Numbered from the stretch's first letter, positions 28,707-50,027 are shown. The stretch is 64,000 bases of DNA from Thermoplasmata archaeon (GCA_021792255.1 JAJYUZ010000003.1:192001-256000), one strand, 5' to 3'. The notes: generated from the sequence alone by a model not told the origin. Translations and numbers: made by a program.

Positions 28707-28785
28707 ATATCAATTCGATAATTTTAGGAAAAGATATCGTATCCCGATAAGAGAAAATCCTTTAAGTCCGTCGAACTGAAGAATT

Positions 28786-29430: not shown

Positions 29431-29530
29431 AAAATACAATTTAAAAGGAATTTAGAGAACTCTAATCCGTAGTACGATCAGGAATAGTCTAGGTTTAATT
29501 TACCTAGTTTCATTTGGTTTCTTCGCAAGC

Positions 29531-31375: not shown

Positions 31376-31508
31376 AGTACTCCCTTGTATTTTGAAAACG
31401 CGCATGTCATAATAAAATTTGTCAAAACTTGGTTTTAATTATACTTGATTGTCTTATGACTTATAAAAGAGTTCGACCGTGGAGCTACTCTGTAATTGGA
31501 AATGATTT

Positions 31509-32678: not shown

Positions 32679-32727
32679 AGATTTGCATAAGAACTTAGGT
32701 AAAAAGACTTAGTTATTCTGAGACGAG

Positions 32728-33522: not shown

Positions 33523-33616
33523 CTCAGGCGTTGCAGATATTTAAGAACGGTCTGCGCAGTCCAGGGGTTCAATTCATCCTTTCTGCCTCCCATCTTTCGC
33601 GTCAAATCGTCTGTGT

Positions 33617-35038
33617 TCATATAAACCCAGCTGCTACGAGCCTATTTATGATCTTACTTCCTACGGTCTTGCTGCTGATTAGTGCGATTGCTATTCCTCC
33701 CAATATGGCGGCGGCAAGCACCGTAATCGTTAAAGCAAGAAATTGCAACCCTAATTCTAGGAAGCCATAGGAGAGAGCGACGAAGAACCATGCCGGTGAA
33801 GCAGGGAGGAGTGTGGCCATCTGCCTCAAATTAAACTGACCGGGCATCATTAGGTCTTCCTTTATTTGAAATGGACTAAGGAAGGCCGATGTGTATACCA
33901 CTATCACGATAAGCGAGGGAATTTCCACCAATAACAGAAGACCAAAATTCAGAGCTTGCAGGTTACCCTGAACTGCAATGAGGAAATTGGACACAGCGAG
34001 TGGAGCAAGGAGTACGGTCATTGAGAGGGATTTGGCCGTTAATTTATCTCTCAAGTAGTGAGTTGGATCACGAGTCATGAAACCTAACCACAGTCTTTCG
34101 TTTCCAAGGACGCCCATCGTGAAAAACATGATGAAAATCACAGAGTAAATGGAAAGGACCATGATGGCTACTTCTGCCTCTTGCAATGGCAATTTTGTGA
34201 TTGAGAATAGGTAATAATATACGGCAGCTAAGACCGCACTAACTATAATTCCATTTTTTAACTTGAATCTTGCTGATCGGTATGCCCCACCACCTCCGAT
34301 AGAGTTCATTCTACCTGCTATTTCTACTGTGAAAAAATTCTCTGCATAAATTGCTTTTATTGGAGTCATCCCGCTAAATCTTCTTGTGTGCTTGACTTGG
34401 CCAGATGTGTACCTCGTAAACGTCTTCATCAGATCAAGATCTACTCTTGAAAGTGATCTGAGTGCTAAGGGCACTGTGACTGCTGCAAGAACTACTGAAG
34501 ACACATCTGCAAAAATGGGATGACCAGTATAAATCGCTGCAGGAGAAAGAGGAAATCCGAAGAAAACGGACAATGACCAAAGTGCAAGTAAAAGTGCCAG
34601 AAGAGCTCTCCACCAAGGTTTCAGCGAGTACGTTATGGGCCCCAACGAAGTCATTGCTAGGATTAGCCCAGTGATGTCAATAAGCGCATAAATGAATACG
34701 GGCTTTAAGTTTGAAAAAGAGTATCCCAATATATAAACGATTATCAGGCCAAAGCTAAGAAATTGCACTATAAAAAGCGAGACTGCAAGGTCCGATCTCT
34801 TTACAGGGAGGGTGAACAGAAAATCTCTGTCTGATTTCAGAACTGCTATTCCGCCACTCAGAATGGGCAGTACTAGGAAGAACGCAAGAAATGCCGGTCC
34901 ATAAATTTCGAATACGTTACCAGAAGGACCAGTTTTAATTGATGTGTAAATCGAAAAGGCAAAAAGTACGATCATCAGAACCAGAAGTTGCTTAGAAAAC
35001 CTGGACATTATAACGAACTTTAGTAGCTTATAGAACAT
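33617..35038 (-). CDS. Putative ABC exporter permease
   Basis: Polytopic membrane protein with [11 protein letters not shown]; overlaps the ABC ATPase gene. Confidence 0.75.
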
Positions 35039-35756
35039 CGGTTAACATCCTCGCCACGACACGCTCAATCGACTCTCCCTCTTTTCCCAATTTCTTCAAT
35101 TCTACAAGCGTTCCTTTCCATATGACCACCCCACGTGAGATCATAATTACCTTGTCCGTCAATCTGGTCGCTACTTCCATTATGTGAGTGGACACCAGTT
35201 GCGTCGAATTAAAGCTCTTTAGATAGTCGATGACGTTCTCCTGAGTCGGTATATCGAGATAATTTAAGGGCTCGTCGAGCAAGAGTACTGAAGGCTTGTG
35301 AACGATTGCAAGTGCCAAAGCCAGCTTTTGAACGTTTCCTCTTGATAGACTCCCTACCTTTGATCTTTCATATTCCCTCAGCTGGAGATAGTCGAGAAGT
35401 CTGTCCACTTTATCAGAAACATCCTCTACCCCTCTAAGTGCTCCTATGTACTCCAGATTCTCCCTTACACTGAAAGACCTGTAGGGTGAGGCATCGTCTG
35501 GCAGATAACCCACGATCCTGTGTGCCTCTTCTGAGGATGGAGAAAAGTCCCCAATTCTAGCTTCTCCTGAATTAGGGCTCAGGAGCCCTACTAGGATTTT
35601 AAGAGTTGTTGTTTTCCCTGCGCCGTTGGGTCCCAGGAGAGCATATCTTTCCCCTGGCTCAAGTCTAAAGGTAAGTCCTTTCAATGCCTCAATGTTTCCG
35701 TAATATTTTGAAACACCTTTCAATTCTATTGATGGCGGGGTCATTGATCTTTCCAT
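35028..35756 (-). CDS. ABC transporter ATP-binding protein
   Basis: Walker [10 protein letters not shown], signature LSRGNVQK, Walker B LLLDEP, STH. Confidence 0.93.
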
Positions 35757-35958
35757 GAGCTCACTCACTCTCAGCAGAAACAAGCCGAGATTCAGTTGAA
35801 GGGAATTCAGAGTTCAGAACAGAAATGACGTTCCATATAGTTAGATATGAATCTGAATAGTTCGTCTGTCCCATTATTCTAAATTTTTCTCGACGATTTA
35901 ACGATTCTGTTCTTTTGTCAAGCCCGTTTACTGTGGTGTCTCTGATTTAAGCGTACAA

Positions 35959-37029
35959 TTATGGGATGCGTCTCCTTCTCGCTAGTCTCTTTGAGACCCC
36001 CCAAACCAATCCAATAACGACACCGATTAAGGATACAAGAAGTATGAAATCTAATAGGGAGAACATGTGTGGTACTTCCAGTGGAACGAGTTCGACGTTG
36101 TGAAGCACTGTTGGATAGGTTTTAGACGTCACCGTGAAATTGTAAAAGTAATTCCAGTATCCTAGAGAAGTCACCTCCATTTCGTATTTATGGCCAGCCG
36201 GTAGGGTTAATGTGAAAACTCCGCCTATTGTAGTAACCTGCTTACCATTCATAAACATAGAGGCTCCGTCAGGCGTCACAGAACCCGTAAAGGTAATTGA
36301 GTATATACTGAACTGAATATTCACTGCTGCACCAGAGCCATCTATTATAATGGTTCCAGTCGTTGGAGAAGTTGTGTAATTCATCGGTACATTGATGGTA
36401 TAAGGATAGGAACCATTTTTTTCCAATAGTAAGATGCTGTCTGATGAGGGAAAACTCGTGATTCCGTTGAATGCAATCGACCACTTAATTCCACTTGGAA
36501 GTCCTGTTTCACGGAACATCACTTGGTATAATCTAGAATACGTTATCGTAATGTTCTCCGAAGCGCCCGATACTGAAAATGAACCTGCGAATGGAGCCAC
36601 CGTGAAGTTGTGTATTAGACCTACGATATAGCCATAACTGCCATTGGGTCTTAGGAAAGTTATTTCGTTCGACAATGATGATTCGTTTGTACCGTTAAGA
36701 GATATATACCAACTGGTCCCGGTGGGGAACCCTCTTTCTATGAAAATGACATCATATTCCTTAGGACTCAAACTTGTCGTTTCTCTGACGTCGCTTAGGG
36801 AAGCAGTCTGTTTGTCTTCTCCACAAAGTTCGCACATTGCGAAACCGTTAGAATAGTCGGTAGGGATTAAATGGTGCGCCCCGGAGTCTCCAATGCTTGC
36901 AATTAAAGGAGGCGAGGGATGCGCATCTAAAATCATTGCCGATCCGGAAGGAACAACGTTTGAACTCGTAGTCATTGAAACGAGACAAAATAGAATAATT
37001 ACCAGGAGTAATTTCTCTTTATCTAGCAT
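35959..37029 (-). CDS. Surface protein with thermopsin-type Ig-like repeats and C-terminal TM anchor
   Basis: Two repeats, VIFIERGFPTGTSWYISLNG and VMFRETGLPSGIKWSIAFNG, each with NGSY; signal peptide; TM followed by basic tail. Confidence 0.75.
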   Translation of the reverse strand: MLDKEKLLLVIILFCLVSMTTSSNVVPSGSAMILDAHPSPPLIASIGDSGAHHLIPTDYSNGFAMCELCGEDKQTASLSDVRETTSLSPKEYDVIFIERGFPTGTSWYISLNGTNESSLSNEITFLRPNGSYGYIVGLIHNFTVAPFAGSFSVSGASENITITYSRLYQVMFRETGLPSGIKWSIAFNGITSFPSSDSILLLEKNGSYPYTINVPMNYTTSPTTGTIIIDGSGAAVNIQFSIYSITFTGSVTPDGASMFMNGKQVTTIGGVFTLTLPAGHKYEMEVTSLGYWNYFYNFTVTSKTYPTVLHNVELVPLEVPHMFSLLDFILLVSLIGVVIGLVWGVSKRLARRRRIP

Positions 37030-37278
37030 AAATTAGTTAAGGATAGTATCGCATAGTTCGTTTATTATATTTTCGATGAAGTTGCAGAAAGCTAACTCTT
37101 GGACCGTTTTCAAATGCTAGATTCAATAAAAGAGGAATTCAAAATAGTGGAGATTCTTTGGTTCTGTTTGATGAATTTACATCATGCTGTTCCAACATTA
37201 AGAGGACACAGAGCAGTTCGAAGTTCATTATTTCTCAAGAAGTTAAAGAGTTTGGCCAAATCAGAATTTCGAAACTAT

Positions 37279-37908
37279 CTATTTCACTTTCTTTACTTTA
37301 TTTTTTCCGTAATCTACAGCTTCTTGATATTTTCCCGTTCGCACGAATTGCCAGAATTTCTCATCGTCCAATAGATTTCCAAAGAGCTCTGAGCTAGCAT
37401 GTTGGCCAATTCCCTTTGCTGACTTCCTTATCTCTTCTATCACGGGCAGAGCGACTGAACACTCCTCGGCCTTCTGCCTCAATTGTTTTCTGATGAACTT
37501 CGAGAATGAGGGGGAACGACCTTCGGTAGACACAGCCACTGTGACGCCATTTGTGGTAAACGCTGCCGGAAATATGAATGGGCTATCAACCCTATCAACG
37601 CTGTTGAAGAGCACTCTTTTGGCATCGCAGTACTTTCGCATCTCATCGTTAAATCTTGCGTCGTCGCTTGCTATTATGACTATAGTATCTCTATTTATAA
37701 AATTCTCCACAGATGATGGCGTGTCTAGATGCAGTACTATCTTTTCCACATCCATACCGTCTATGTATGGGTCGAATTTCTCAGAGATTACAGTAATTTT
37801 GTCGAATTTAGAATGAAGATTTCTCAGCTTAAGTGCTGCAGCCGTGCCGCCACCAATTATTGTGAGCTTTTTTCCGGTAACGTTGAGCATTACAGGTATA
37901 AATCTCAT
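37279..37908 (-). CDS. Precorrin-2 dehydrogenase / sirohydrochlorin ferrochelatase (CysG N-terminal/SirC-like)
   Basis: IIGGGTAA, FNSVD...FIFPA, VAVSTEGRSP. Confidence 0.88.
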   Translation of the reverse strand: MRFIPVMLNVTGKKLTIIGGGTAAALKLRNLHSKFDKITVISEKFDPYIDGMDVEKIVLHLDTPSSVENFINRDTIVIIASDDARFNDEMRKYCDAKRVLFNSVDRVDSPFIFPAAFTTNGVTVAVSTEGRSPSFSKFIRKQLRQKAEECSVALPVIEEIRKSAKGIGQHASSELFGNLLDDEKFWQFVRTGKYQEAVDYGKNKVKKVK

Positions 37909-37910
37909 TA

Positions 37911-38771
37911 TTACCTTTCCTTCGATCCGTCTTCGGGTGAACGCCTTGCTAAAATTATGCTATCTAAGGGGTTTTTTAAAGTTCCCCTCAAGTTCGTTGC
38001 AGTAATGAAACCGCTGTCAGTGAGGGCATTGATCACCCTACCTATTACGATGATGCTGGGAGCCTTCACTTCAAACTTATCGACGATTTTTGGAAGGTCA
38101 CTCAGCAGCCCAACGAATATTCTCTGATCTTTCTGGGTACCATTCTCAATTACCGTGACTCCCGTAAACGGGTCCATACCCCTCTCTATGAGATTTCTCG
38201 CTATTTCTAATGAGCTTCCAACGCCCATTAGAACAACTATGGTACCGTCGAACCTCGCAATGTTGTCCCAGTCGTTCTCGATCACAGAATCCTTCCGATG
38301 GCCAGAAATAATAAGGAGAGATGAGGAATAATCTCTGTGAGTCAGGGGGATTCCTATTGCAGTCGCTACAGCTATGGCTGATGTCAGGCCAGGGACAACC
38401 TCGTATGGAATGTTCTTCTTCTTCAGGAATTCTATCTCTTCGCCCCCTCTACCAAATATGAATGGATCTCCGGACTTGAGCCTGACAACGTTCTTCCCCT
38501 GTCTGTAATACTTCAGCACGAGTTCGTTTATTTTTTCCTGCTTAAAAGATGATTCAAGTCCGTGACTTGTCCCGACACATACCTTCTCGCAGGTATTGGG
38601 TACGAGTTTCACTATCTCGTAGCTGACCAGCCTATCGTACAAGAGAACGTCGCATTTTTTGATCAGTTTCGTGGCTTTGACAGTAAGATATTCTGGGTTA
38701 CCTGGGCCAGCACCGACCAAGTACACTTTCCTGGATCTCTTACCGGATTTTCCGGACTTATTTGCCTTCAT
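37911..38771 (-). CDS. cobA: Uroporphyrinogen-III C-methyltransferase
   Basis: VYLVGAGPGNPEYLT, LYDRLV, RLKSGDPFIFGRGGEE, VPGLTS, GIPLTHR. Confidence 0.93.
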   Translation of the reverse strand: MKANKSGKSGKRSRKVYLVGAGPGNPEYLTVKATKLIKKCDVLLYDRLVSYEIVKLVPNTCEKVCVGTSHGLESSFKQEKINELVLKYYRQGKNVVRLKSGDPFIFGRGGEEIEFLKKKNIPYEVVPGLTSAIAVATAIGIPLTHRDYSSSLLIISGHRKDSVIENDWDNIARFDGTIVVLMGVGSSLEIARNLIERGMDPFTGVTVIENGTQKDQRIFVGLLSDLPKIVDKFEVKAPSIIVIGRVINALTDSGFITATNLRGTLKNPLDSIILARRSPEDGSKER

Positions 38772-38783
38772 GATACATCAATC

Positions 38784-40187
38784 TTAAGGCACGATTGCCT
38801 TGTAGACAAGGTCCATTAATCCGGAATAGGCAAGGGCCTGGTCGTGTTTCTTATTAAGGCGCGGAAGAGTGTGACTAAGTTGTGCTTTACAAATAGCGCA
38901 GGGTCTTATCACGTGTGTACCGCCAACAGATATGGCGTCCTCATACCATAACTTAGCATATTCTGTTCTCAATGGAAGCAGTTCATCACTGAGCAGACCG
39001 CCTCCACCTCCGCAACACCACGTTCTTTCTCTTGAATGTGGAGAGTTTTGATAACTACTTACCACACTAGATAGTACAGATCTTGGTTCATCAATCAGGT
39101 CCCCTCCTCTTGCATAATTGCAGGGGTCTTGGTATACGTAGGAGGGCCCATCGTTATTTTTGGGCTCTAGTTTTATTTTTGCACTTTCGATAGCATCCTC
39201 TACAAGATGGAACACGTGCAGCCCAGATAATCCTTTTTTCTCCAGTTCTGGAATTACATAATTCTTGAACGCTCTCCAACCGTGTCCACACTCTCCCGCA
39301 ATAACTGCTTTGACCCCAAGTTCCAGTGCGACATTCACCACGTGATTCCCTATTTCCCTGAGATGTTTCGCATCCGTAAACAGACCAAAATTTGCAAGCT
39401 CAGCGTGCTTAGTTGTGAACGTATAATCGAATCCTATGGAATGAAAAAATAACATGTACCCTTTCAGTGTTTCTATGTTACTAAAGAAATCAGCAGAAGG
39501 AGGAATAAACATTGCATATGCGGGTTGATCGATTTTTGGAATCACTTTTACTCCCTTTTCTTCTAAGATCTCGTCTCTGGCAAATTCTATAGTGGATTTT
39601 AGTGCGGCGGGCGGGAGAGCCATGTTGTTTCCAGTCCTTTCCACATTACCAATGACTACTGCGGTATATCTCGATATTTTACCCATATCGTACAGAACTG
39701 ACCTAATCGTTCTGGTAACATCTGCCTGGTCTATACCAAAAGGGCAGATTTCTCCACATCTCCTGCACTCTAGGCACTGATAATAGTAGGTCGAAACGTC
39801 CTCTAAGGATTTGTTGTTTAACTCCCTCGCTCCAACCGCTTTCTTAAATATCTTTCCAGAAAGTTTGGTCGATTTTAGGAGCCCCCTAATCAAATCGGCT
39901 CTTCCGACTGGAGAGTTGTATGTATCTTCAGTAGTTAAAAAAGTGGGACAGGCATTAAGACAGGCTCCGCAATGCACACACGCATCTATAGCGAGTTTGA
40001 CGTTCCTATTCCGTTTAACTTCTCTCTTTACGTTCTCTACAAAAAAATCCACTTGATTTTGATTTGGGGTCTGCGTGTGACCAACCTTATCGTAAAGCGC
40101 ATTTACGAGCTTTTCGTCAGCCCAGAGAGATTCAAAATTTGAAGTGTCTCCTTTCCTAAACTCTATTTCGTGCGGTATTGTGTTCAC
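38784..40187 (-). CDS. dsrK: DsrK, Fe-S / CCG-domain catalytic subunit
   Basis: CVHCGACLNACP, CLECRRCGEICPFGID, GECGHGWR, QDPCNYAR, CCGGGGG, PCAICKAQ; directly follows dsrM. Confidence 0.9.
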   Translation of the reverse strand: MNTIPHEIEFRKGDTSNFESLWADEKLVNALYDKVGHTQTPNQNQVDFFVENVKREVKRNRNVKLAIDACVHCGACLNACPTFLTTEDTYNSPVGRADLIRGLLKSTKLSGKIFKKAVGARELNNKSLEDVSTYYYQCLECRRCGEICPFGIDQADVTRTIRSVLYDMGKISRYTAVVIGNVERTGNNMALPPAALKSTIEFARDEILEEKGVKVIPKIDQPAYAMFIPPSADFFSNIETLKGYMLFFHSIGFDYTFTTKHAELANFGLFTDAKHLREIGNHVVNVALELGVKAVIAGECGHGWRAFKNYVIPELEKKGLSGLHVFHLVEDAIESAKIKLEPKNNDGPSYVYQDPCNYARGGDLIDEPRSVLSSVVSSYQNSPHSRERTWCCGGGGGLLSDELLPLRTEYAKLWYEDAISVGGTHVIRPCAICKAQLSHTLPRLNKKHDQALAYSGLMDLVYKAIVP

Positions 40188-40962
40188 CTTCCTCGTCGAT
40201 TCTTAGCATATACGCTTCCGTCTCCTTAAATCTCTTTATTTTGAAACTCGTCTTCGTTATAGTTGGCTGAAACAAGTATGCAACTATATGGATTATTTTT
40301 CCGAATGGGATGTACGCTATGAATACAAAGGCTAAGGTTATGTGGATCGCTGTTACCGGACTGACTTGGGTCATCGTGGCTATTTCAGGCCTGAACTCTA
40401 CTATGGAGGTAAGCCAAGGCGAAACGGTAGAAATGAAATCGGGTCGTATATAGAGCGTCTGTGTAAGCCCGAGTATAATCAGCGCCAGAAGCATTGAGAT
40501 TGCAAAATAATCGTCTAAGTAGCTTATGCGCCTCACTTTCTTTACTTGTAATCTCCTCGCAGCAAGAATTAGGATACCGATAAAAGCGCTGATGCCAGCA
40601 CTTCCACCCATGTAGAGCGCTACCATCATATGAAATTGGATGGAGACGGGTAAGGGAACGACCATGGCAAGATGTCCCAGCAGTGAGAACCAGATTCCAT
40701 AGTGAAACAAAATCGATCCGACGATGAGCGTTCTGTCTTTTTCCATTTTTGGGAGAGTATAAAAGAGAAAAACTCTTTTGGCCAGGTCTTTCACTATCGA
40801 AAAAAGACTGAATGTACCGGGAACTATAGCGACAGTCTTTAACTCCGTTAAACCCTTGGCAGAGATCCAGCTGGCTATTCTGTATATGAATCCGACAAGA
40901 AAAATAGCAATTGCACTATAAGGAAGGAAAATAAATAAAATACTTGCGAGTAGATTGTTCAT
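40156..40962 (-). CDS. dsrM: DsrM, NarI-like membrane cytochrome b
   Basis: His heme ligands in LFHYGI...LGHL and IHITL...PFGKIIHI; about 6 TM helices; lies between dsrB and dsrK. Confidence 0.88.
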   Translation of the reverse strand: MNNLLASILFIFLPYSAIAIFLVGFIYRIASWISAKGLTELKTVAIVPGTFSLFSIVKDLAKRVFLFYTLPKMEKDRTLIVGSILFHYGIWFSLLGHLAMVVPLPVSIQFHMMVALYMGGSAGISAFIGILILAARRLQVKKVRRISYLDDYFAISMLLALIILGLTQTLYIRPDFISTVSPWLTSIVEFRPEIATMTQVSPVTAIHITLAFVFIAYIPFGKIIHIVAYLFQPTITKTSFKIKRFKETEAYMLRIDEEGEHNTARNRV

Positions 40963-40970
40963 AATGATCT

Positions 40971-42080
40971 TTACCGAACGGGAAACTGCCTAATCCCGAA
41001 CTCGGAACTTACGAACTCAGTGTTGTTCCACCTTGTTACAGGAATATCAAGTGCTTTTTGAAATTCCCTTAATCCAATTCTCCGCACATAGTCTGCGAGC
41101 CTTTCACCCGCCACAGCATTCCCCTTCCACATATCTATGATCTTCTGTAGAACCGCGACGACTTCACGATAATTTGGTGGGCTTATTGGAATCCAAGGGA
41201 TGAGGACCATTGCAAGATTCTGTCCTCTTCCAGTGTTGCTACTCTTGCCTCCGACCAATATCGAGATTCCGATTTTTGTGGTATCAAATGTGATGTAATC
41301 GCAGACATCCTTGCAACGACCACAGGCTATGCATTTTTCGCGATTGATTTGAATGCCGACGGTGTCATCGTCCTTTTTGAAAGCGGATATACATTTCATC
41401 GGGCAGACCATGACAACTTCAGGAACAGCAACCTCTAATGCCTTCGCACTTCTGGGGAGGCATAAACCTATTTTCTGTGGATCGAAAGAAGGAGCATCGC
41501 CGTAATGGCCCACAACTACTATATCAGACGTGAGTCCACCACAGGCCGTAGGACATCCTGCAACACTAATCCTCAATTTGGCGGGAATACTTTCCTCATC
41601 AGTAAAATATTTTCCAAATTGATCGTAGAGGACTTTTGTGATAGAAGAAGAGTCTGCGACTGCCGTGGTACAGGAAAGGTACGCTGTGCACGACCCAATG
41701 GACCATAATGAATTACGCCACCCTCCTGCGTGAAATCCCATTTTTTCTATCTCATTTTTGATCAGCAAAGACTTTTCAAGACTGTCGGAGATAAATTCCA
41801 CATTTCCCGATCTTGTGAACCTCAGAGTCCCAATTCCAAATTTATCCTCTATATCAGCAAACACCCTGAGGGTATTAGAGCTAAATCTAGCATTTGGCGG
41901 GCTTCCGACCTTAATCGTAAACAAATGATCGCCTTTTTCAGAAATGTGTTCGATTATTCCGCCGCCGTGGAATTTTCTATCTGCCCATTTACCCAGATTA
42001 CTCTTAATTTCCTCTGGAAGCGAGTCCGTGTATGGCACTGGCAATCTTTTTTTCATTCTTTCTGATAAGTTTGTTGACAT
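40971..42080 (-). CDS. dsrB: Dissimilatory sulfite reductase beta subunit (archaeal type)
   Basis: GIIEHISEKGD, RFTRSGNVEF, CTAYLSC...GCPTACGG, CIACGRC, VGGKSSN, GERLAD. Confidence 0.92.
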   Translation of the reverse strand: MSTNLSERMKKRLPVPYTDSLPEEIKSNLGKWADRKFHGGGIIEHISEKGDHLFTIKVGSPPNARFSSNTLRVFADIEDKFGIGTLRFTRSGNVEFISDSLEKSLLIKNEIEKMGFHAGGWRNSLWSIGSCTAYLSCTTAVADSSSITKVLYDQFGKYFTDEESIPAKLRISVAGCPTACGGLTSDIVVVGHYGDAPSFDPQKIGLCLPRSAKALEVAVPEVVMVCPMKCISAFKKDDDTVGIQINREKCIACGRCKDVCDYITFDTTKIGISILVGGKSSNTGRGQNLAMVLIPWIPISPPNYREVVAVLQKIIDMWKGNAVAGERLADYVRRIGLREFQKALDIPVTRWNNTEFVSSEFGIRQFPVR

Positions 42081-42083
42081 TCT

Positions 42084-43304
42084 TCACTCCCCGTACTCCT
42101 TTACAATATTGTCTACCCATTTAGAGTAACCTTCTCTCTCTTCATCAGTCAGTACTGCACTGGCAATTATTCTTTGTTGTCCAGTTGGATGCCCTTCAAT
42201 TTCAGTCGGAAGACTGCTGCTGACTGCTTCCACTGTTTTGGAGAATCCTGATTTGAAAAGCATGTCTCCTATCCTGTCTTTGTGGGGAGAGCCATCTTCC
42301 CAGATGCTGATTATCTTCATTATGAATTCCTTAGCCTGGGCATAATCATCCAGAATTGATACAGGCTTTCCCATTTTTGGACCAAACCTTCCCTTTATAT
42401 TTCCACCTGCCAGAAGTGCAACTTTTCTGTTCTTTCCTGGTTTAATGGCAGGGAAGGCATACCTTATGCAGTTCATGGATTTTTTGCACTTTTCAGAATC
42501 TATTTTGATTCCTCCTGATTCTCGATTTTCAGATATTGCACCTGATGGACATTCCTTGATTAAACGTTCTATCTTCAGATCATCCTTCCTTATCTTGTCT
42601 TGAAGTAAACCCCAGTCAACATCTGGACTCCCCTCCCACGTTCCAATGAATCCGAAATCAGCCCTGTGAGACGCCCTCGCACAGTCCATAGGACATCCGC
42701 TGAATTTGAGTTTCACCTTGAATGGGAATAACTGATTCGAAAGGTTGTTGTATATCGGTTCATAAGTCATGTAATGGTCCCTTGCTTGGAGGGTGTCGTA
42801 TAAAGAATATTCGCACAGTGCAGGGCCGACGCAAGATGCAAAATCCCTGTAAGTATCGCCCGTATCTCCAACATCTGTTCCTAGGTTCCTTATTGCATCA
42901 ATTGCCTCATCAGCCCTTTCCGGATTCATTGAAATTATCATCCCTCCTGTCTGTCCGATAACTTCTATGAGACCTAGTCCGTACTCATCAGAAAAATCAA
43001 GAATTTTCCTTAACATTTCTGTTCTGTAGAATTGTCCGGAAGGATGATAAATTCTGAAGTGAAGTTCTGAGTCTTTTCCGTCCTTGGTCCGTCTGGCTAT
43101 AAAACCAGTATAGACATATCTTATCTTTGCCGACCCTCCATACCATTGAGTTTCGCCAATGGCTAGTCCACTGGAGTACGCCCTTATAGGATACTTAGTT
43201 TTCTTGATTTCTGTAACGTGACTTGGCCATTTCCCACTCTCCAAATATTCAAGAATTTTAGCACCTTTATCAGAGATGGCGATGTCTTTGTCATTTACAG
43301 TCAT
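42084..43304 (-). CDS. dsrA: Dissimilatory sulfite reductase alpha subunit (archaeal type)
   Basis: LESGKWPSHVTEIK, HFRIYHPSGQFY, siroheme motif CVGPALC...KFSGCPMDC, DFGFIGTW. Confidence 0.93.
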   Translation of the reverse strand: MTVNDKDIAISDKGAKILEYLESGKWPSHVTEIKKTKYPIRAYSSGLAIGETQWYGGSAKIRYVYTGFIARRTKDGKDSELHFRIYHPSGQFYRTEMLRKILDFSDEYGLGLIEVIGQTGGMIISMNPERADEAIDAIRNLGTDVGDTGDTYRDFASCVGPALCEYSLYDTLQARDHYMTYEPIYNNLSNQLFPFKVKLKFSGCPMDCARASHRADFGFIGTWEGSPDVDWGLLQDKIRKDDLKIERLIKECPSGAISENRESGGIKIDSEKCKKSMNCIRYAFPAIKPGKNRKVALLAGGNIKGRFGPKMGKPVSILDDYAQAKEFIMKIISIWEDGSPHKDRIGDMLFKSGFSKTVEAVSSSLPTEIEGHPTGQQRIIASAVLTDEEREGYSKWVDNIVKEYGE

Positions 43305-43323
43305 TATCGCTCACCTTCCGTTA

Positions 43324-43551
43324 TTAAGGTCCGCGTTTTAAAAGAAATTCTACTGCCCCTTGCTTTTCAGTAATTTCAATAATCTTGTTCCCTGTCTGTT
43401 TGGACCAAGCATCAAAGTCGGATTTCGCTGCGGGATCATCAACGATCACCCTGATTTCATCTCCGACTGCTATTTCCTTTATCGCCTTGGCCGTCTTAAT
43501 AATCGGCAGGGGACATTGCAAACCCTTAAAATCAAAAACTTTAGCGTTCAT
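43324..43551 (-). CDS. tusA: TusA-family sulfurtransferase
   Basis: DFKGLQCPLP, DDPAAKSD; ends 19 nt before dsrA, which has its own SD (AAGGTGA). Confidence 0.92.
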   Translation of the reverse strand: MNAKVFDFKGLQCPLPIIKTAKAIKEIAVGDEIRVIVDDPAAKSDFDAWSKQTGNKIIEITEKQGAVEFLLKRGP

Positions 43552-43571
43552 CAAATTTCAATCTACACTTG

Positions 43572-43606
43572 ATATTAATAACTTTCCCTTGAAATATTAA
43601 GGGAAA
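43572..43606 (-). promoter_or_regulatory. Putative BRE/TATA of the tusA-dsr operon with overlapping palindrome
   Basis: Minus strand GAAAG-TTATTAAT about 25 nt before the tusA start; inverted repeat TTTCCCTT-N8-AAGGGAAA at 43583-43606. Confidence 0.55.
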
Positions 43607-43998
43607 ATTAAATCCACGTTGATAATGGATGGTAGTAACGGTGCCACTGTGACATCCTCAGAATGCCTTCCTTCGTCTTGAATCTGTGCTTTAGCAACCA
43701 TGACATTGCAGAAAGTCACTTCTACCCCTAAGGATCAATAGAAACGGCAGGGAAGTTCATATCATTTGGTGTGTAGGATGTTTCACCAGTAAAATCGTTC
43801 AAGTTGGTTGTGATGATTCTATTCTTGACGAATGTGTATCTGTGAATCTTCACATTACATTTCCTTTCATGTATATTTCATGCTTTCCCACATTATTTCT
43901 GGGAATGTTCAAAACCTACTGAACGATACAAATTCAACTTATGCTTGACATTCTCTATTCAGCAAAAGGTTCTTATAAGGGCTAAGCGTAGTATTAAC

Positions 43999-44433
43999 AT
44001 GAGTGAAGAAACTCCTTCAAAGAAAAACAAATTGGTAATAGTTTTAAGCAAAGGGACGCTGGATGCTGCATACCCAGCCCTGATAATAGCCACATCCGGC
44101 GTTTCTCTGGGGATGGAAGTTTACATGTACTTCACCTTTGGTGGAATGAAATTTCTTACAAAGGGACAGAGCGATACTGCCGAGCCCTCAAAAGATCTCG
44201 GTCTCTCAAAAGAAGAGTTGAAAAATTTGATTTCACAAGGAGGAATGCCATCTGTTCAAGATATGCTGAAAATGGCAGTCGAGATGGGAGTCCACATTAA
44301 TGCGTGCTCCCCGACTATGAAATTGTTCGGTACTACCCAAGAGAATTTGACACTGAAAGAAGCTGACGTTGTTGGGGCATCAACTTTCCTAGGATGGGCA
44401 TCGGATCCTTCTGCTATAACGCTGTTCATATGA
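43999..44433 (+). CDS. DsrE2-like (DsrE/DsrF/DrsH family) sulfurtransferase
   Basis: SKGTLDAAYPALIIA, YFTFGG, INACSPTM, VGASTFL, TLFI. Confidence 0.85.
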   Translation: MSEETPSKKNKLVIVLSKGTLDAAYPALIIATSGVSLGMEVYMYFTFGGMKFLTKGQSDTAEPSKDLGLSKEELKNLISQGGMPSVQDMLKMAVEMGVHINACSPTMKLFGTTQENLTLKEADVVGASTFLGWASDPSAITLFI

Positions 44434-44484
44434 TATAACTAAAATTTGGTAACGATGGTCAATAACAATTAGGGAGGAAAGAAC

Positions 44485-44847
44485 GTGGAAGAAAATAGAA
44501 AGAAGATAGCTTTTTTCTGCACGATTTCTCCAGGAGATACAGCTAGGCTAGATACGATGCTTGGGTATGCGGCTGCAGGGATAGCGATGAACTATGAAAT
44601 TAAAATATTCCTAGCTCTTGATTCCGCACTCGTGGTGAAAAAAATGATATTTGAGAAGCTTGATACCAAAATAAAAGGACGGATAACGGACTCTATAAAA
44701 GAAGGAGCGGATATAGGTGTTTGTTCTGCCTCTGCAAAAACATTCGGGATCGGAGAAACTGACCTGATAGAGGGAGTTAAAATAGAAGGGATAGCCTCAT
44801 TCTACTACTATGCAGAAAACGCTGATATAGTGCTTTCCTGGAACTAG
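44485..44847 (+). CDS. DsrE family protein
   Basis: IFLALDS, GADIGVCSASAKTFG, LIEGVKIEG, ADIVLSW; SD GGAGG before GTG. Confidence 0.8.
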   Translation: MEENRKKIAFFCTISPGDTARLDTMLGYAAAGIAMNYEIKIFLALDSALVVKKMIFEKLDTKIKGRITDSIKEGADIGVCSASAKTFGIGETDLIEGVKIEGIASFYYYAENADIVLSWN

Positions 44848-45114
44848 GAAACCTTTCCTCTTACTGACAGTGATGCCCCCTACAGTGGGCACACTCCTTT
44901 CTTCTTCAGACAGCTTTACAGTAAAAATCTAATGGAGTTTCCGTCGTATCGGGGTGTTAGCATTCCAATGAAATTGAACGACTGATCATCAACAGCCCAT
45001 GGCCGATAGAGGTCAGTAGCACTCTGGGAAACGATATCGCATTTTATTTGTCATAAAATCCAAGTCTAACTTATGTTAGTAAAATGTCCTGGACAATTAC
45101 ACAGGACTATTTTT

Positions 45115-46482
45115 CTAAGGTTTTTTCACAGCAAATTTTTGGGAGATAGTTTTGACAAAGTCGTGGACTGCTGGGTGAAGATGTGCATATTGAGCGAAAG
45201 TATTCTTCACCTGTATCCCATCAAACTTACCTTCTATTCCAGTTCCTTTTTCGTGTAAAAGATTGAATTCATATTTTTCCTTCAGAGAAATTTTCGAATA
45301 ATGAAATTCATGCCCTTTCAGTATGTCGCCTTTGTCCGAAATCAGGTTGTCTTTTAAAACGCTCGCAATTGAATAACCATGCGCAACAGGTTGATCATTC
45401 ATCAGAGTCCTTCCATTTATTAGTCCAACAAGATCGTATTCCTCACCATTGAAAGTGACAGAATTCGTTAGGTAAATGAGACCACCGCATTCTGCATATA
45501 TGATGCCCCCATTGTCGCCAAAAGACCACACGGAGTTGCGAAAACTTTTGTTTTTTTCAAGATGCTGAGCGTAGACTTCTGGGAAACCGCCTCCTATGAT
45601 CAACACATCCAAATTAGGCAATTCATTATCTTTTTCGGGATCGATGAACCTTACAGTCCCATAAAGACTTGCCTTTTCAATAGTTTCTGGGTAGTAGAAA
45701 GTGAAGGATTTCCCACCCATTATTCCAAATTTCAAGTTAGACCTAGTCATCGATTTTTTTTCTGACCCACCTACCCACACATCAATGTCCTCTGACTCGC
45801 TTTTGGCAAGTTTCATTATTCTGTTTGTCTGAAACGATTCAGCTGGTAGTTTATCTAGTATGGTTTGAAAGTCGTAAGATGGGCCCTTCTCGGTAACAGG
45901 TTGTAATCCGAGATGCCTATAGTGGAAGATGTCTGTGATATCTCTGTTTCTGTATATAACTCCGAGGACGGGTACGCCTTCTTCCTCTATCACTTCCCTC
46001 ATCTTGTCATACTGACGTGGAATTATATTTGTCAGGACTACCCCTATGATCTTCACCTTATGGTCAAATTGGATTAGTCCTCTGAGAATTGCACCTGCTG
46101 TCCTATTTATTCTCTCCCCATCAATCACTAGTAAGATCGGGGCTCCCAGAAGCTTGGCCAACTGTGCCGTACTTCCGGTTTCGCTTATACCATCGATGCT
46201 GTCGTATAATCCGTGATTTCCTTCAATCAAGGCTATGTCGGACCCCTTTGATTGCTGGTAGAATAATTTTGTAACTGTATCTCCCATAAGGAAAAAATCA
46301 AGGTTTCTTGAATATTTGCCGCTTGCAGCTTTATGATAGGTAGGGTCGATAAAATCCGGTCCGTTTTTGAATGCGCTGACTTTGTAACCTTCCTTGGAAA
46401 GAGTTTTTAAGAGAGAGACAGTGACGAGAGTTTTTCCAGTTTTTCCCTTGATAGAGGTGATAACGATCCTTGGTACGGTTAT
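45115..46482 (-). CDS. dsrN: Cobyrinate a,c-diamide synthase-like protein, probable siroheme amidase DsrN (no canonical start codon)
   Basis: Frame extends 65 codons upstream of the ORF-track ATG (ITVPRIVITSIKGKTGKT...FKNGPDFIDP...RNLD); also EGNHGLYD, RHLGL, GGGFPE, AECGG, GHEFHYS. Confidence 0.82.
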   Translation of the reverse strand: MTVPRIVITSIKGKTGKTLVTVSLLKTLSKEGYKVSAFKNGPDFIDPTYHKAASGKYSRNLDFFLMGDTVTKLFYQQSKGSDIALIEGNHGLYDSIDGISETGSTAQLAKLLGAPILLVIDGERINRTAGAILRGLIQFDHKVKIIGVVLTNIIPRQYDKMREVIEEEGVPVLGVIYRNRDITDIFHYRHLGLQPVTEKGPSYDFQTILDKLPAESFQTNRIMKLAKSESEDIDVWVGGSEKKSMTRSNLKFGIMGGKSFTFYYPETIEKASLYGTVRFIDPEKDNELPNLDVLIIGGGFPEVYAQHLEKNKSFRNSVWSFGDNGGIIYAECGGLIYLTNSVTFNGEEYDLVGLINGRTLMNDQPVAHGYSIASVLKDNLISDKGDILKGHEFHYSKISLKEKYEFNLLHEKGTGIEGKFDGIQVKNTFAQYAHLHPAVHDFVKTISQKFAVKKP

Positions 46483-46681
46483 TTTTTTTCTAATAATGGT
46501 TATTTTACCCCATCCCCGATGCTATTTTTCACTCTGCAGCGAATTTTCAATAAAGACCTCGAAGGAACGTTTCAACGACCTGTCTAATTTAGCCTGAGGA
46601 ACAGTAGTACATGGGAATCCACAGTATCGCGGCGGTCTCCACGTGTTTAACTCCTTAACAAATTAAACGGTTCGAAGAGTA

Positions 46682-47020
46682 TTAGACGCACCCAGTCGGT
46701 TTGGGAGCCCCTGCTACTTTACAGGCGCCATGGGCAGGGCCATCGGGAAAAAGTTCGAACATTTTTTCAAGTGTGATTCCGGTCTTTTTGACAATCATTT
46801 TGATTGGCGGGCAGACTCCAAAGGTTCCCCAGTACTCTCTCAAATACCGAATGAGTACCCAGTGCTCTTCGGTCATATCTGGAACTCCTGCTTGCTCTTT
46901 TGCAATCTTTTTGGCTATTTCTTCATTCCAAATTTCCGGACTTTGCATGAATCCATCCTCGTCAAACAGGACTTTTACCCCGTTGACCTCAAACGACTCA
47001 GATTTTTCATCCGTTGTCAT
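46682..47020 (-). CDS. dsrC: DsrC sulfur carrier protein
   Basis: DEDGF, MTEEHW, LFPDGP and C-terminal ACKVAGAPKPTGCV with both conserved Cys; ATG at 47020. Confidence 0.95.
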   Translation of the reverse strand: MTTDEKSESFEVNGVKVLFDEDGFMQSPEIWNEEIAKKIAKEQAGVPDMTEEHWVLIRYLREYWGTFGVCPPIKMIVKKTGITLEKMFELFPDGPAHGACKVAGAPKPTGCV

Positions 47021-47313
47021 ATTTATCGATTTGTACAATTTGATATTGTTTAAATAAATTGTGCGTGACTTTACATGATTCAATACTGATTGCCGGTAGT
47101 ATTGCATTATACGATGTCTGTGGTACATTGGGACCGTTGTACCTATGTCTGTTCTATCGGATTCATTTTCTTCAGATAATAACCAAGGGTGAAATTTCCC
47201 AGACCAGACATAATCTAATATTTCGAGAATAATACTGCCTGTTAAACGATGCAATAGACAGCGTGAGGAACGTGAGAATTTTTCTAGGGCAGAATAGTTT
47301 GGATTTGGTGCGA

Positions 47314-47386
47314 CGCCCCGAACGGGATTTGAACCCGTGTCACGAGCTCGACAGACTCGTATGATAGGCCACTACACTATCGGGGC
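47314..47386 (-). tRNA. tRNA-Asp(GTC)
   Basis: Minus strand GCCCCGA...CGAGT-CTGTCGA-GCTCG...ACGGG-TTCAAAT-CCCGT-TCGGGGC-G. Confidence 0.95.
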
Positions 47387-47407
47387 TTTCCGTCGTATTG
47401 TCTGAGT

Positions 47408-47845
47408 TTATTTAACACTTTCTTGTGGATGGGTGAGTGGGAACAATCTCCTCAGTGCTTCTATCTCTCCCTTTAATATATGAATTGCGGCGAAGCGCGT
47501 AAAGGGATACCACAGCCCCTTCATTTTCAGATCCATCCTTATTACGACCTTTTTGTCAAAAACCTGAAAGACTTGATAGCCCTTTATGGGACCATCTCCA
47601 TACTTAATCAGTATGGACAGATCCTCCTTCCTTCGACCGATCCATTCTGTCTGTCTCTTGTTCCTAAAAGCCAGTACGGACTCCCTGTTGTTTTGATCTA
47701 TCCTCTTGATTGCAAGGTGCCCTCTCCAAATTTCGGTGTCGTCGATGCTTTCGATCAATTTCTGGAAGGCATCCTCGGGTTGTTCGATTAAAGGAAATTC
47801 GTAGTAGACACGCACCAAGTTGGATTGATTTCTGAAATATAACAT
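47408..47845 (-). CDS. Hypothetical protein, possibly SRPBCC/START-like
   Basis: 145 aa; IW...YGDGPIKG...C-terminal helix EALRRL. Confidence 0.5.
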   Translation of the reverse strand: MLYFRNQSNLVRVYYEFPLIEQPEDAFQKLIESIDDTEIWRGHLAIKRIDQNNRESVLAFRNKRQTEWIGRRKEDLSILIKYGDGPIKGYQVFQVFDKKVVIRMDLKMKGLWYPFTRFAAIHILKGEIEALRRLFPLTHPQESVK

Positions 47846-47925
47846 TTTAAATCATGATATAGTTTCTAAGCTTTTCTTCCCTTTCGTTTTGGAGCTAAAG
47901 GATTAATTGTCTGTTCAGATAATGT

Positions 47926-48912
47926 GTGATGGTTGGTCTATTCGATGAGAACGGAACAAACAAGATCGGGTTAGGGACGTGGCAACTCGGGCTTAAGGGG
48001 TGGGGAAGAGACTATGAAGAGAGTGAGCTCGTCGAGGGCCTAAAGTTTGGAATTAATAATGGACTGAACTTCGTCGATACCGCAGAAATATATGGAATGG
48101 GAAAATCCGAGAGTCTCGTCGGAGAAGTTGTAAGTGAGTTCGAAAGAAAACAGCTTTTCATCGCCACAAAACTTGCAGGCTTTAACGCAACCAAGGGAAG
48201 AGTGCGCAAAAGCCTAACAAACAGTCTGAAAAGACTGAGAATGGACTATTTGGATCTCTACCAGGTCCACTGGGAACCCAGTCTATACACGAACCTGACG
48301 GATCTATTCAGGGAACTCGAGGAGGTAGCAAAAGAAGGCTTGATCAATCATATCGGAGTATCTAATTTTAGTGCCAAAAGCATAGAAAAAGCCAACGGTT
48401 CTATGAAAGAACTAAAGATTGAAAGCAATCAGATCAAGTTCAATCTGGTAGAGAGACCAAATTCAGAACTATTGAGTTTTATGAAAGCAAACGCAATTAA
48501 ACTTATAGCTTGGAGCCCTCTGGCTCAGGGATTTCTTTCTGGAAAATACTCTAGCGAGAGCAAACCATCTGGAAGCGTCAGGAAAATCAATAGACTATTC
48601 TCTCCATCCAGTTTTGAAAGATTTGGCCCTTTGCTTTCAGAACTGCGCAGAATATCAGATGAGAGGAAACTTAGTCCGATTCAGCTGGTTCTGGCCTACG
48701 AAAAACATATTGGTATCCTTCCTATCCCCGGATTCAAGAACGTAAAACAGGTGAAGGACTTGGTCTCTGCTAATTCTCTGGAGCTATCAGAACAAGAAGT
48801 CTTTTCAATTGACTCGGCTCTTCAAAAAAGCGGAGTTTTGGAAACGTCAATAGGTTTCTATCCAAGAATACTTCCAAATTTCATCGCAAGATTGGGGTTT
48901 CTGCTGATCTAG
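47926..48912 (+). CDS. Aldo/keto reductase
   Basis: IGLGTWQ, DTAEIYG, IATK, DLYQVHW, IGVSNF, AWSPLAQG. Confidence 0.93.
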   Translation: MMVGLFDENGTNKIGLGTWQLGLKGWGRDYEESELVEGLKFGINNGLNFVDTAEIYGMGKSESLVGEVVSEFERKQLFIATKLAGFNATKGRVRKSLTNSLKRLRMDYLDLYQVHWEPSLYTNLTDLFRELEEVAKEGLINHIGVSNFSAKSIEKANGSMKELKIESNQIKFNLVERPNSELLSFMKANAIKLIAWSPLAQGFLSGKYSSESKPSGSVRKINRLFSPSSFERFGPLLSELRRISDERKLSPIQLVLAYEKHIGILPIPGFKNVKQVKDLVSANSLELSEQEVFSIDSALQKSGVLETSIGFYPRILPNFIARLGFLLI

Positions 48913-48980
48913 TATAGACAAATGTCGAATGATAATGTCGGCAAAGGCTAAATAACCGATGAAATTCTGAGATGATTGTA

Positions 48981-50027
48981 ATGAGTTCAATAGTGTCCTA
49001 TGGATCTTACGTTCCGAGGTTCCGAATCAAGTCCGAGGAGATCGCAAAAGAGTGGGGAGAGATTCCTGAAAACATCAAGAATGGACTCTTTATCTTCAGC
49101 AAATCCGTTCCGGGACCTGACGAGGATGTCCTAACTATTTCAGCAGAGGCTGCAAAGAATGCACTCAAAAGGGTTGACCTTGATAAGAACAAAATAGGCG
49201 CAATATACGTTGGTTCTGAAAGTCATCCATACGCCGTAAAGCCTACGTCGTCAATTCTCGTTGAAGCTCTTGGCTTATCTTACGATATCCATTCTGCAGA
49301 CTACGAGTTTGCGTGCAAAGCGGGAACCGCCGCAATGCAAAATGTAATGTCTATGGTCGACAGCGGGCAGATCGAGAATGGAATCGCAATTGGGGCTGAC
49401 ACTTCCCAGGGAGCACCGGGAGATGCACTTGAATACTCCGCGTCCGCAGGTGGAACAGCGATTTTGATCGGAAAGAATGGTTTTGCGGACTTCAATGCTA
49501 CTCTTTCGTTCACAACAGATACACCAGATTTCTGGAGGAGGGAGGGGGAGAAGTACCCGAGCCATGGGGGTAGATTCACTGGAGAACCTGCATACTTCAA
49601 GCACGTTCTTACCGGTGCAAAGAAAATGATGGAAAGGCAATCGACGAAACCAGAAGATTACGATTACGCAGTGTTCCACCAACCCAACGGTAAATTTCCA
49701 ACGAGGGCAGCAAAAATGCTCGGCTTTAAGGATGAACAGGTAAAAGATGGTCTGCTCACTCCATACATAGGCAACACGTATTCCAGTTCAATGATCATTG
49801 GTCTGTCAGCAATCCTGGACAAGGCAGAGAGCGGAGACAGGATACTCGCCGTTGCGTTTGGTAGCGGAGCAGGCTCGGATGTTTTCGATCTGACTGTCAA
49901 CGATCACATCAAAACCCTGAAAAGAGAGAAGGCTCCGGGAGTGATGGAGCAAGTCAACAAGCAGATATGGATAGACTACGCTACTTACGTTAAATACAGG
50001 GGCAAGATAATTATGAGGGGGGCGTGA
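48981..50027 (+). CDS. Hydroxymethylglutaryl-CoA synthase (archaeal type)
   Basis: [11 protein letters not shown], catalytic [31 protein letters not shown]. Confidence 0.95.

Follow-up and report, generated by a model that had tools for sequence, protein, structure and literature searches.

Organization of the dsr locus

Genes for a dissimilatory sulfite reductase (Dsr) system were analyzed in a stretch of 64,000 nucleotides from a Thermoplasmata archaeon (GCA_021792255.1, JAJYUZ010000003.1:192001-256000), here called the window, which corresponds to G000:C7:192001-256000 of its source genome G000 (1.59 Mb, 11 contigs); positions given without a contig are counted from the first letter of the window. 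The locus encompasses eleven genes. Seven of these form a packed minus-strand run (37279-43554) in the order tusA-dsrA-dsrB-dsrM-dsrK-cobA-sirC, with intergenic gaps of 2-19 nt, except for dsrK and dsrM, which overlap by 32 nt in the coordinates of the open reading frames (ORFs). A divergent spacer of 390 nt separates this run from two plus-strand genes of the DsrE family, which are followed by dsrN and dsrC and by a tRNA gene as right-hand neighbor of the dsr block. The features, with the scores of the models matched, are as follows:

37279-37908, minus strand: sirC, CysG N-terminal-type precorrin-2 dehydrogenase and probable ferrochelatase, last operon gene (TIGR01470 71.2 bits, cut-off 62.3; PF13241 61.6)
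37911-38771, minus strand: cobA, uroporphyrinogen-III C-methyltransferase (SUMT), first siroheme step (TIGR01469 290.6, cut-off 185)
38784-40187, minus strand: dsrK, cytoplasmic Fe-S/CCG subunit with Fer4_8 and CCG domains (NF045796 317.6, below the cut-off of 400)
40156-40962, minus strand: dsrM, NarI-type membrane cytochrome b, quinol side (PF02665 124.6; NF038037 62.7, below the cut-off of 300)
40971-42080, minus strand: dsrB (TIGR02066 320.5, below the cut-off of 341.5)
42084-43304, minus strand: dsrA (TIGR02064 316.8, below the cut-off of 392.85)
43324-43554, minus strand: tusA, sulfur-carrier protein, first operon gene (PF01206 76.1 bits)
43999-44433, plus strand: DsrE2-like protein (DrsE_2 family), divergent (PF13686 87.5 bits; NF047629 66.4, below the cut-off of 210)
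44485-44847, plus strand: DsrE-family protein of 120 aa (PF02635 58.8 bits)
45115-46497, minus strand: dsrN, siroheme a,c-diamide synthase type of the CobB family (cobB TIGR00379 318.7, cut-off 261.4)
46682-47020, minus strand: dsrC (TIGR03342 104.4, cut-off 53.5)
47314-47386, minus strand: tRNA-Asp (ARAGORN)

The seven-gene run, dsrN and a dsrC with two cysteines lie exactly where the initial annotation had placed them; the two DsrE-family genes (43999-44433 and 44485-44847) were absent from its gene list. The genes dsrA and dsrB are 3 nt apart, both products carry the NIR_SIR fold (PF01077) and each is best matched by the model of its own subunit. The siroheme/[4Fe-4S] motif CX5C...CX3C is formed by C158, C164, C204 and C208 in DsrA, where it is invariant in the DsrA alignment, and by C131, C137, C176 and C180 in DsrB, which additionally has the ferredoxin-type insert CX2CX2CX3C (C250/253/256/260). 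DsrC ends in CKVAGAPKPTGCV and possesses both conserved cysteines, TusA has the cysteine motif CPLP and each of the DsrE-family proteins retains a cysteine. Together with the CCG-domain DsrK, the NarI-type DsrM and the CobB-type DsrN this corresponds to the minimal archaeal DsrABC+MK(N) set that had been recognized at the locus before and that is laid out, with the role of Qmo, in passages of PMC10504309. The cofactor supply was also proposed to be encoded in the locus, and cobA, the cysG-N-type gene and dsrN were found there; hemB, for the supply of uroporphyrinogen, is encoded outside of it (C3:24882-25820). The siroheme branch is represented by CobA and a CysG-N/Met8-type protein, for which TIGR01469 and TIGR01470 both match above cut-off, and the latter protein would also act as ferrochelatase.

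Host genome and integrity of the assembly

G000 has a completeness of 93.55% and a contamination of 0.46%. For elongation factor 2 (EF-2), which is encoded in the window, identities are 88-89% to proteins from metagenome-assembled genomes (MAGs) named 'Thermoplasmatales archaeon', 74% to Aciduliprofundum boonei, 72% to Thermogymnomonas and 70-71% to Picrophilus and Thermoplasma. The host of the locus was thus classified as a Thermoplasmata archaeon, as assumed initially. All 14 runs listed with the stretch (14/14) are metagenomes of mine tailings, mine drainage or sediment, and positions 36800-41200 are fully present in runs from three studies of these three sample types.

It was considered whether the locus is a chimera of binning or assembly or a decaying relic. 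Two observations point in this direction, namely that dsrN has no ATG, GTG or TTG start and that the public contigs end at the tRNA-Asp (47314-47386) to the right of dsrC, so that the right edge of the locus is joined only in the genome record. Against it, the reading frames of all eleven genes are open and their motifs intact, the G+C content of the locus (0.41-0.45) is even across it and similar to that of the surroundings, and the contamination is low. Public contigs from runs of three studies show 0 differences over 34000-47339, as expected if no chimera is present. The joint of cobA and dsrK is spanned by a contig in 4/4 runs compared over 34000-49000; three of these runs are possible sources of the G000 assembly and the fourth shares its study with one of them. 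The flank, cobA and dsr are connected on individual contigs, one of 12.9 and one of 9.9 kb; single contigs span 34000-45096 and 34000-42041. An artefact or relic is therefore very improbable and this explanation is largely refuted. In the four runs, contigs that continue into several unlike sequences on the left and on the right accumulate at very high depth at the tRNA-Asp, which is an assembly breakpoint common to other community members.

The DsrAB proteins group with the reductive archaeal enzymes

The named DsrA proteins closest to that of G000 are from a Nitrososphaerota MAG (64% identity), Thermoplasmata MAGs (55-59%), Thermoproteus tenax (59%), Pyrobaculum (57%) and Vulcanisaeta (49-50%). 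A tree of concatenated DsrAB from 38 genomes was calculated with ultrafast bootstrap (UFBoot) and Shimodaira-Hasegawa-like approximate likelihood ratio test (SH-aLRT) supports and, additionally, with FastTree, using only loci with both subunits. It contains 22 Thermoplasmata rows, one row each of Vulcanisaeta and Archaeoglobaceae, rows of Verrucomicrobiota and Phycisphaerae, two reductive bacterial rows and 11 rows of the oxidative-type clade, including a Desulforhopalus row beside Chlorobium. The related loci (at least 80) were collected with one peptide pattern and are mostly of the oxidative type, so that reductive bacteria are represented by few rows and Thermoproteota by one; only DsrA was to hand for Thermoproteus and Pyrobaculum, which were left out.

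The proteins of G000 fall into a clade with G469, G461, G494, UBA61, bin_159 and Vulcanisaeta, supported by 100/100 (UFBoot/SH-aLRT) and 1.0 (FastTree), in which G000 pairs with G469 (100/100). A second clade of 15 rows consists of Thermoplasmata only (100/100). Both archaeal clades are separate from the bacterial reductive and oxidative clades, and FastTree concurs. DsrAB of G000 was accordingly assigned to the reductive archaeal type, and the phylogenetic check suggested with the initial annotation comes out in favor of this type. In the same 38-row tree, DsrAB of Desulforhopalus sp. IMCC35007 (L041) joins Chlorobium (100/100) and not the reductive bacterial rows.

Distribution of dsr genes and two types of dsr loci in the host order

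As indicated earlier, dsr genes are rare in the phylum: a DsrA match at E <= 1e-40 was found in 6/401 sampled genomes, and in 24/168 genomes of the host order. Two types can be distinguished among the latter. Type A, the type of G000, is present in 4/168 genomes, i.e., G000 and the three genomes G469, G494 and G461 of family f3 (completeness of these three 77%, 92% and 97%), whose DsrA is 66-75% identical to that of G000. Type B is present in 20/168 genomes, including 5/17 other species of the host genus, and its DsrA shows 33-40% identity to that of G000, which itself has a single dsrAB copy.

The type-A layout is conserved in G469, G494 and G461, with tusA-dsrABMK, divergent dsrE2/dsrE and dsrN, and with dsrC in two of the three. 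In all three of these loci tusA is kept upstream of dsrA and a DsrE2-like protein of 70-77% identity is encoded. The 120-aa DsrE-family protein is 67-73% identical in type-A loci and 48-54% in the type-B loci of the congeners. The latter are organized as an island with sirC-cobA-dsrKMBA-(100-aa ORF)-dsrC, dsrE and aprBA-qmoA-qmoB-qmoC, approximately 10 kb from hemB; this island represents a complete set of genes for sulfate reduction in Thermoplasmata. Three of these islands are located as follows:

G448:C7:32300-47600, type-B island of a congener
G445:C5:32300-48000, type-B island of a congener
G446:C6:8400-23900, type-B island of a congener

Within the host genus, cobA occurs in 6/18 genomes, which are exactly the dsr holders, and hemB in 17/18.

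Mosaic composition of the locus

The dsr block of G000 is 66-84% identical to that of the three f3 genomes. For the individual proteins, identities to G469 compared with the congener G448 are 75% vs 37% (DsrA), 78% vs 35% (DsrB), 76% vs 42% (DsrK) and 84% vs 54% (DsrC; 52-54% for the congeners); for DsrM, the values are 71% (G469) and 27-31% (congeners). For the siroheme genes the relation is reversed, with 41% vs 67% for CobA and 39% vs 56% for SirC. SirC shows overall 46-58% identity to the congeners and 39-41% to the copies in the type-A loci of f3, and CobA ranks within the order as own genus (58-67%), f4 (49-55%) and f3 (37-46%, except for G505 with 53%). CobA of G469, in turn, has its best match in a type-B holder of f3 (51%). 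Flanking orthologs of G000 and its congeners are 45-87% identical, and CobA and SirC compared with G448 lie inside that range. They are also as similar as between two type-B congeners, for which 65% (CobA), 54% (SirC) and 89% (DsrA) were obtained.

The simplest reading of these identities is a mosaic, in which a dsr block (tusA-dsrABMK, dsrE2/E, dsrN and dsrC) would lie beside cobA-sirC of the host lineage. The dsr block would accordingly travel laterally and either land beside, or recombine into, a resident dsr-cobA-sirC operon. An exchange at an ancestral chromosomal site was considered and rejected, as the flanks in the window share no genes with the dsr contigs of the congeners and the position syntenic to the congeners' island (C3, below 14.9 kb) carries unrelated genes; due to these differing sites the exchange cannot be assigned to one chromosomal site. 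Integration linked to the tRNA was likewise rejected, with no direct repeat derived from the tRNA-Asp in 28000-47450 and no integrase seen.

Two further observations concern the siroheme genes and their neighborhood. In the order scan, many CobA matches of family f4 contain an in-frame TGA, TAG or TAA, which may reflect decaying copies or alignments that run past gene ends. On the minus strand at 32728-35783, 1.5-4.5 kb beyond sirC, a TauE/SafE-family anion permease (134 bits), an ABC ATPase and two ORFs without a known family are encoded; this group could transport sulfite and is not conserved beside other type-A loci.

APS reductase, ATP sulfurylase and Qmo

The initial annotation regarded the locus as self-contained and the organism as one that respires sulfite or thiosulfate and not sulfate, and it named sat or aprAB elsewhere in the genome as a finding that would refute the sulfite-only inference. 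Neither statement is supported by a genome-wide search, and sulfite-only is refuted as originally worded, since aprB (156.6 bits, cut-off 135.65) and aprA (924.6, cut-off 641.75) of adenosine-5'-phosphosulfate (APS) reductase were found at C3:351-353 kb and sat, encoding ATP sulfurylase, at C3:418-419 kb, 65 kb beyond aprBA (324.2 bits, barely above the cut-off of 322.95). These genes raise the question whether G000 is a complete sulfate reducer, in which Sat, AprBA and Dsr would act together and AprBA would be fed by a donor other than QmoABC.

For Sat, homologs are present in 21/25 genomes of the family, including dsr-less congeners at 72-76% identity, and the G000 gene was classified as a family-wide housekeeping gene. 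The type-B congeners encode a second, dedicated Sat type (34-37% identity), which is missing in G000. For AprA, identities are 73-77% to f3 genomes and 54-57% to the own genus, and the nearest named proteins beyond Thermoplasmata are those of Marsarchaeota and Nitrososphaerota (67-69%); the lineage is common to sulfur oxidizers. No AprA at E <= 1e-80 was found in G469, G494 and G461, so that G000 is the only one of the 168 order genomes with type-A Dsr and AprBA together. Outside the order, bin_159, which represents a second Thermoplasmata lineage, holds an aprBA of 71% identity within its type-A dsr locus, where dsrK and dsrE flank it. Apr also occurs without Dsr in this order, as AprA is present in the f3 genomes G091 (57%) and G533 (80-89% in two pieces), which have no DsrA match at E <= 1e-40.

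QmoC was not found in G000, where the best match reaches 39 bits compared with a cut-off of 300, whereas in the five type-B congeners dsr is accompanied by aprBA-qmoA-qmoB-qmoC (344.7 bits for QmoC of G445). Above cut-off, QmoC is present in 7/168 order genomes, none of which holds the AprA type of G000. In G000, QmoA and QmoB of the congeners match only a fusion protein of the Hdr type (27-35%), which lies in the following cluster:

G000:C11:127495-136550: HdrA-HdrA-MvhD fusion (1144 aa), HdrC-HdrB fusion (374 aa), EtfBA and formate dehydrogenase alpha (FdhA)

In this cluster the HdrA-HdrA-MvhD fusion adjoins the HdrCB fusion and is a conceivable donor for AprBA, and passages of PMC10504309 describe forms with QmoAB-HdrBC without QmoC in Gram-positive sulfate reducers. 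The fusion is present in 12/25 family genomes, including eight congeners without dsr and apr, and in 0/5 Qmo holders; its role as an Apr-specific stand-in for Qmo was ruled out due to its occurrence in dsr-less congeners. Seven of ten full-length orthologs of the C11 Hdr/Fdh cluster contain an in-frame TGA, TAG or TAA, for which selenocysteine or errors are possible explanations.

Sulfate reduction is further suggested by the scores of Sat and, far above the cut-offs, of aprBA, by the aprBA-containing dsr locus of bin_159 and by a proposal, in the part of PMC11094006 considered, that Thermoplasmata with dsrAB and aprAB reduce sulfate in acidic springs. On the other side stand the lack of QmoC and of the dedicated second Sat, the distribution of sat and of the Hdr fusion among dsr-less relatives, the oxidizer-type AprA lineage and the report, again in passages of PMC10504309, which cite Chernyh 2020, that archaea with sat and apr and without Qmo do not grow on sulfate. 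With sat and aprBA and no Qmo, the step from sulfate to sulfite is possible on paper, without a known electron donor, and sulfate respiration by G000 is not established by a gene content with a housekeeping sat and no QmoC. A complete sulfate reducer is thus considered unlikely. The sulfite-based physiology guessed earlier is not demonstrated by the gene content either and may still be right, as sat is a housekeeping gene (21/25), QmoC was not found and, according to those passages of PMC10504309, archaea with sat and aprAB and without Qmo were observed to use sulfite but not sulfate.

Markers of sulfur oxidation and thiosulfate reduction

Besides aprAB, sat and qmo, the initial annotation had noted dsrD, dsrJOP, dsrL and dsrT as missing from the window. 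The genome-wide searches agree with these absences from the window: sat and aprBA are both located on C3, DsrL gave a partial match of 28-31% identity on C6 and no full-length protein, and QmoC, NrfD and DsrD were not found; dsrT, dsrJ and dsrO were not searched for. For DsrD, there was no PF08679 match in the genome, although the control for PF08679 also gave no signal, and a tblastn search with one Pfam-verified Archaeoglobaceae DsrD gave no match (best E 0.17 over 11 residues). DsrH had no match in the genome search, and neither had, by tblastn, DsrE/F/H of two Chromatiaceae operons nor the small ORFs behind Chlorobium dsrL. No NrfD is encoded in the genome, hence no DsrP and no Psr/Phs anchor. 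The use of thiosulfate is not supported by a dedicated enzyme, as no Phs/Psr-type thiosulfate or polysulfide reductase was detected and the sole molybdopterin enzyme is the formate dehydrogenase FdhA. Subunit I of a haem-copper oxidase (COX1, 366 bits) is encoded at G000:C3:329079-330398, 21 kb from aprBA, and cytochrome bd was not found in G000, which is likely able to respire oxygen.

These genes bear on a reading in which the system would run in the oxidative direction, with sulfane sulfur passed by TusA/DsrE to DsrC and oxidized by DsrAB to sulfite, and with oxygen as sink via the haem-copper oxidase, or would disproportionate sulfite, part of it being oxidized by AprBA and Sat under formation of ATP and part being reduced by Dsr. 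It would account for the conservation of tusA, the DsrE2-like and the DsrE-like gene beside dsrA, for COX1, for the lack of Qmo and for an AprA with 65-69% identity to Marsarchaeota, Nitrososphaerota and sulfur-oxidizing Proteobacteria, and partly oxidized sulfur is expected in the mine-related metagenomes from which all 14 runs originate. The DsrAB proteins, however, belong to the reductive archaeal clade and are distant from the oxidative clade, neither DsrEFH nor full-length DsrL was found in the genome search, and the three other type-A holders share the TusA/DsrE set without having AprA (E <= 1e-80). No conserved AprM-like partner of AprBA was found either; a 157-aa membrane ORF upstream of aprB was examined as a candidate and rejected, as it matches no family and is absent from 11/11 related apr loci. 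The main-text passages of PMC12948486 describe oxidative DsrAB as exclusively bacterial, and the publications consulted here provide no earlier example of an archaeal-type DsrAB working oxidatively. Oxidation or disproportionation is therefore regarded as doubtful.

Proposed function of the locus

From the gene content, the motifs, the phylogeny and the distribution described above, we infer the direction of the pathway, the roles of TusA and the DsrE-family proteins and the physiology. The locus is proposed to encode a functional reductive Dsr module of the archaeal type, used for sulfite respiration in a facultatively aerobic Thermoplasmata archaeon of mine waste; we assign this reading a probability of roughly 0.55. 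DsrAB would reduce sulfite onto DsrC, resulting in the formation of the DsrC trisulfide. DsrK, located on the membrane cytochrome b DsrM, would reduce the trisulfide with electrons from menaquinol, whereby sulfide is released. TusA and the two DsrE-family proteins may deliver sulfane sulfur to DsrC or take it over from there. The cobA and CysG-N-type gene products would synthesize siroheme, which DsrN would amidate.

Several points weigh against this proposal. DsrA, DsrB, DsrK and DsrM all score below the NCBIfam equivalog cut-offs, which suggests a divergent lineage of the family. The lack of an ATG, GTG or TTG start in dsrN, whose frame continues beyond the listed ATG into an upstream P-loop N-terminus, means that amidation of siroheme may be impaired; the gene has an ATT (46495-46497, minus strand) adjoining an A8 run where the G469 ortholog has ATG, public contigs show no difference over the start region (46474-46503), and dsrN either starts, unusually, at ATT or has been weakened. 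The set of TusA, DsrE2 and DsrE is best known from sulfur oxidizers, AprA is 65-66% identical to that of sulfur-oxidizing Burkholderiales, Sulfuriferula and Hyphomicrobiaceae, and the haem-copper oxidase would provide an oxygen sink. As regards the direction of the pathway, there is no RNA dataset among the 14 runs listed with the stretch. Finally, the mosaic pattern is derived from identity tables and not from reconciled trees, and CobA and SirC are fast-evolving.

Relation to known systems

Known sulfur-carrier relays include TusA-DsrE2-DsrEFH in Allochromatium and TusA-DsrE3 in Sulfolobales. The G000 locus resembles both in having a TusA with the CP cysteine motif and cysteine-bearing DsrE-family proteins beside dsr, and it differs from the Allochromatium relay in that no DsrF or DsrH was found in G000, that the DsrE2 model reaches 66 compared with a cut-off of 210 and that the partner is a reductive archaeal DsrAB.

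Compared with the reductive systems of Thermoproteota (Vulcanisaeta, Thermoproteus, Pyrobaculum, Caldivirga), DsrAB of G000 belongs to the same clade as Vulcanisaeta (100/100), DsrA identities to these systems are 49-59%, and the minimal DsrABC+MK set lacking DsrD and DsrJOP is common to both, as is a DsrE-family gene, which is also present in the Vulcanisaeta locus. In contrast to these systems, G000 belongs to another phylum and to a mesothermal mine habitat, tusA is part of the operon, cobA-sirC follows dsrK, and dsrAB is present as a single copy, unlike in Thermoproteus tenax with two DsrA matches. The type-B operon of the congeners also has cobA-sirC behind dsrK; however, its DsrA belongs to a separate clade and is only 33-40% identical, and G000 has tusA instead of the 100-aa ORF and dsrC upstream of dsrA. 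While these congeners have aprBA-qmoABC beside dsr, G000 has aprBA alone and on another contig.

A sulfite-reduction system of this kind is itself not new, as archaeal-type DsrAB in Thermoplasmatota, including MAGs from mine drainage, is described in the main text of PMC12948486 (mLife 2026), with clades split at 60% identity and frequent transfer among family-level clades of Thermoplasmatota and Thermoproteota. The RA-DsrAB clades reported there for Thermoplasmatota represent the same phenomenon, i.e., two types with a patchy spread (4 type-A and 20 type-B genomes in 168 in this study). That main text makes no mention of AprAB, Qmo, Sat or TusA, and its passages do not cover the mosaic of G000, the Apr lineage and the lack of Qmo in this genome or the contrast to its congeners. 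Sulfite-reducing Thermoplasmata without sat or apr were described as YNP-TEG 'Diaforarchaea' (Colman 2020; passages of PMC7174415); G000 shares with them the Thermoplasmata host and DsrABC+MK and, in contrast to them, holds sat and aprBA. In Lutacidiplasmatales, dsrAB was found in only one genome (PMC9287336), which has no bearing on the direction here, and PMC11406059 contains no text on Thermoplasmatota. In the main-text passages of these publications, supplements aside, we found neither the mosaic of cobA-sirC and dsr, nor the contrast within the genus, nor the combination of a type-A Dsr with an oxidizer-like AprBA without Qmo.

A more far-reaching and considerably less probable scenario is that dsrABMK(-C) constitutes a swappable cassette within an operon frame that is otherwise conserved. 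A Thermoproteota-like block would have displaced the Thermoplasmata-specific one beside a resident cobA-sirC, with at least one such event in this genus and one in f3, and in this lineage it would then have been paired with an oxidizer-like AprBA, without Qmo, in an acidophile that respires oxygen, with Dsr perhaps disproportionating sulfite or oxidizing sulfur. If true, an archaeal-type DsrAB would here be used oxidatively or bidirectionally for the first time.

The archaeal-type Dsr has been used as an argument for sulfite reduction, and not sulfate reduction, as the ancestral sulfur respiration. The parts of the pathway appear to travel loosely in this group, as one genus comprises species without dsr, species with a full dsr-apr-qmo island of one type and the species of G000, whose dsr and apr are both of another type and which has no qmo. 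In this group it is therefore unsafe to call an organism 'sulfite only' or a 'sulfate reducer' from one locus or from the presence of sat and aprAB alone, and DsrAB trees do not follow the hosts, even inside one genus.

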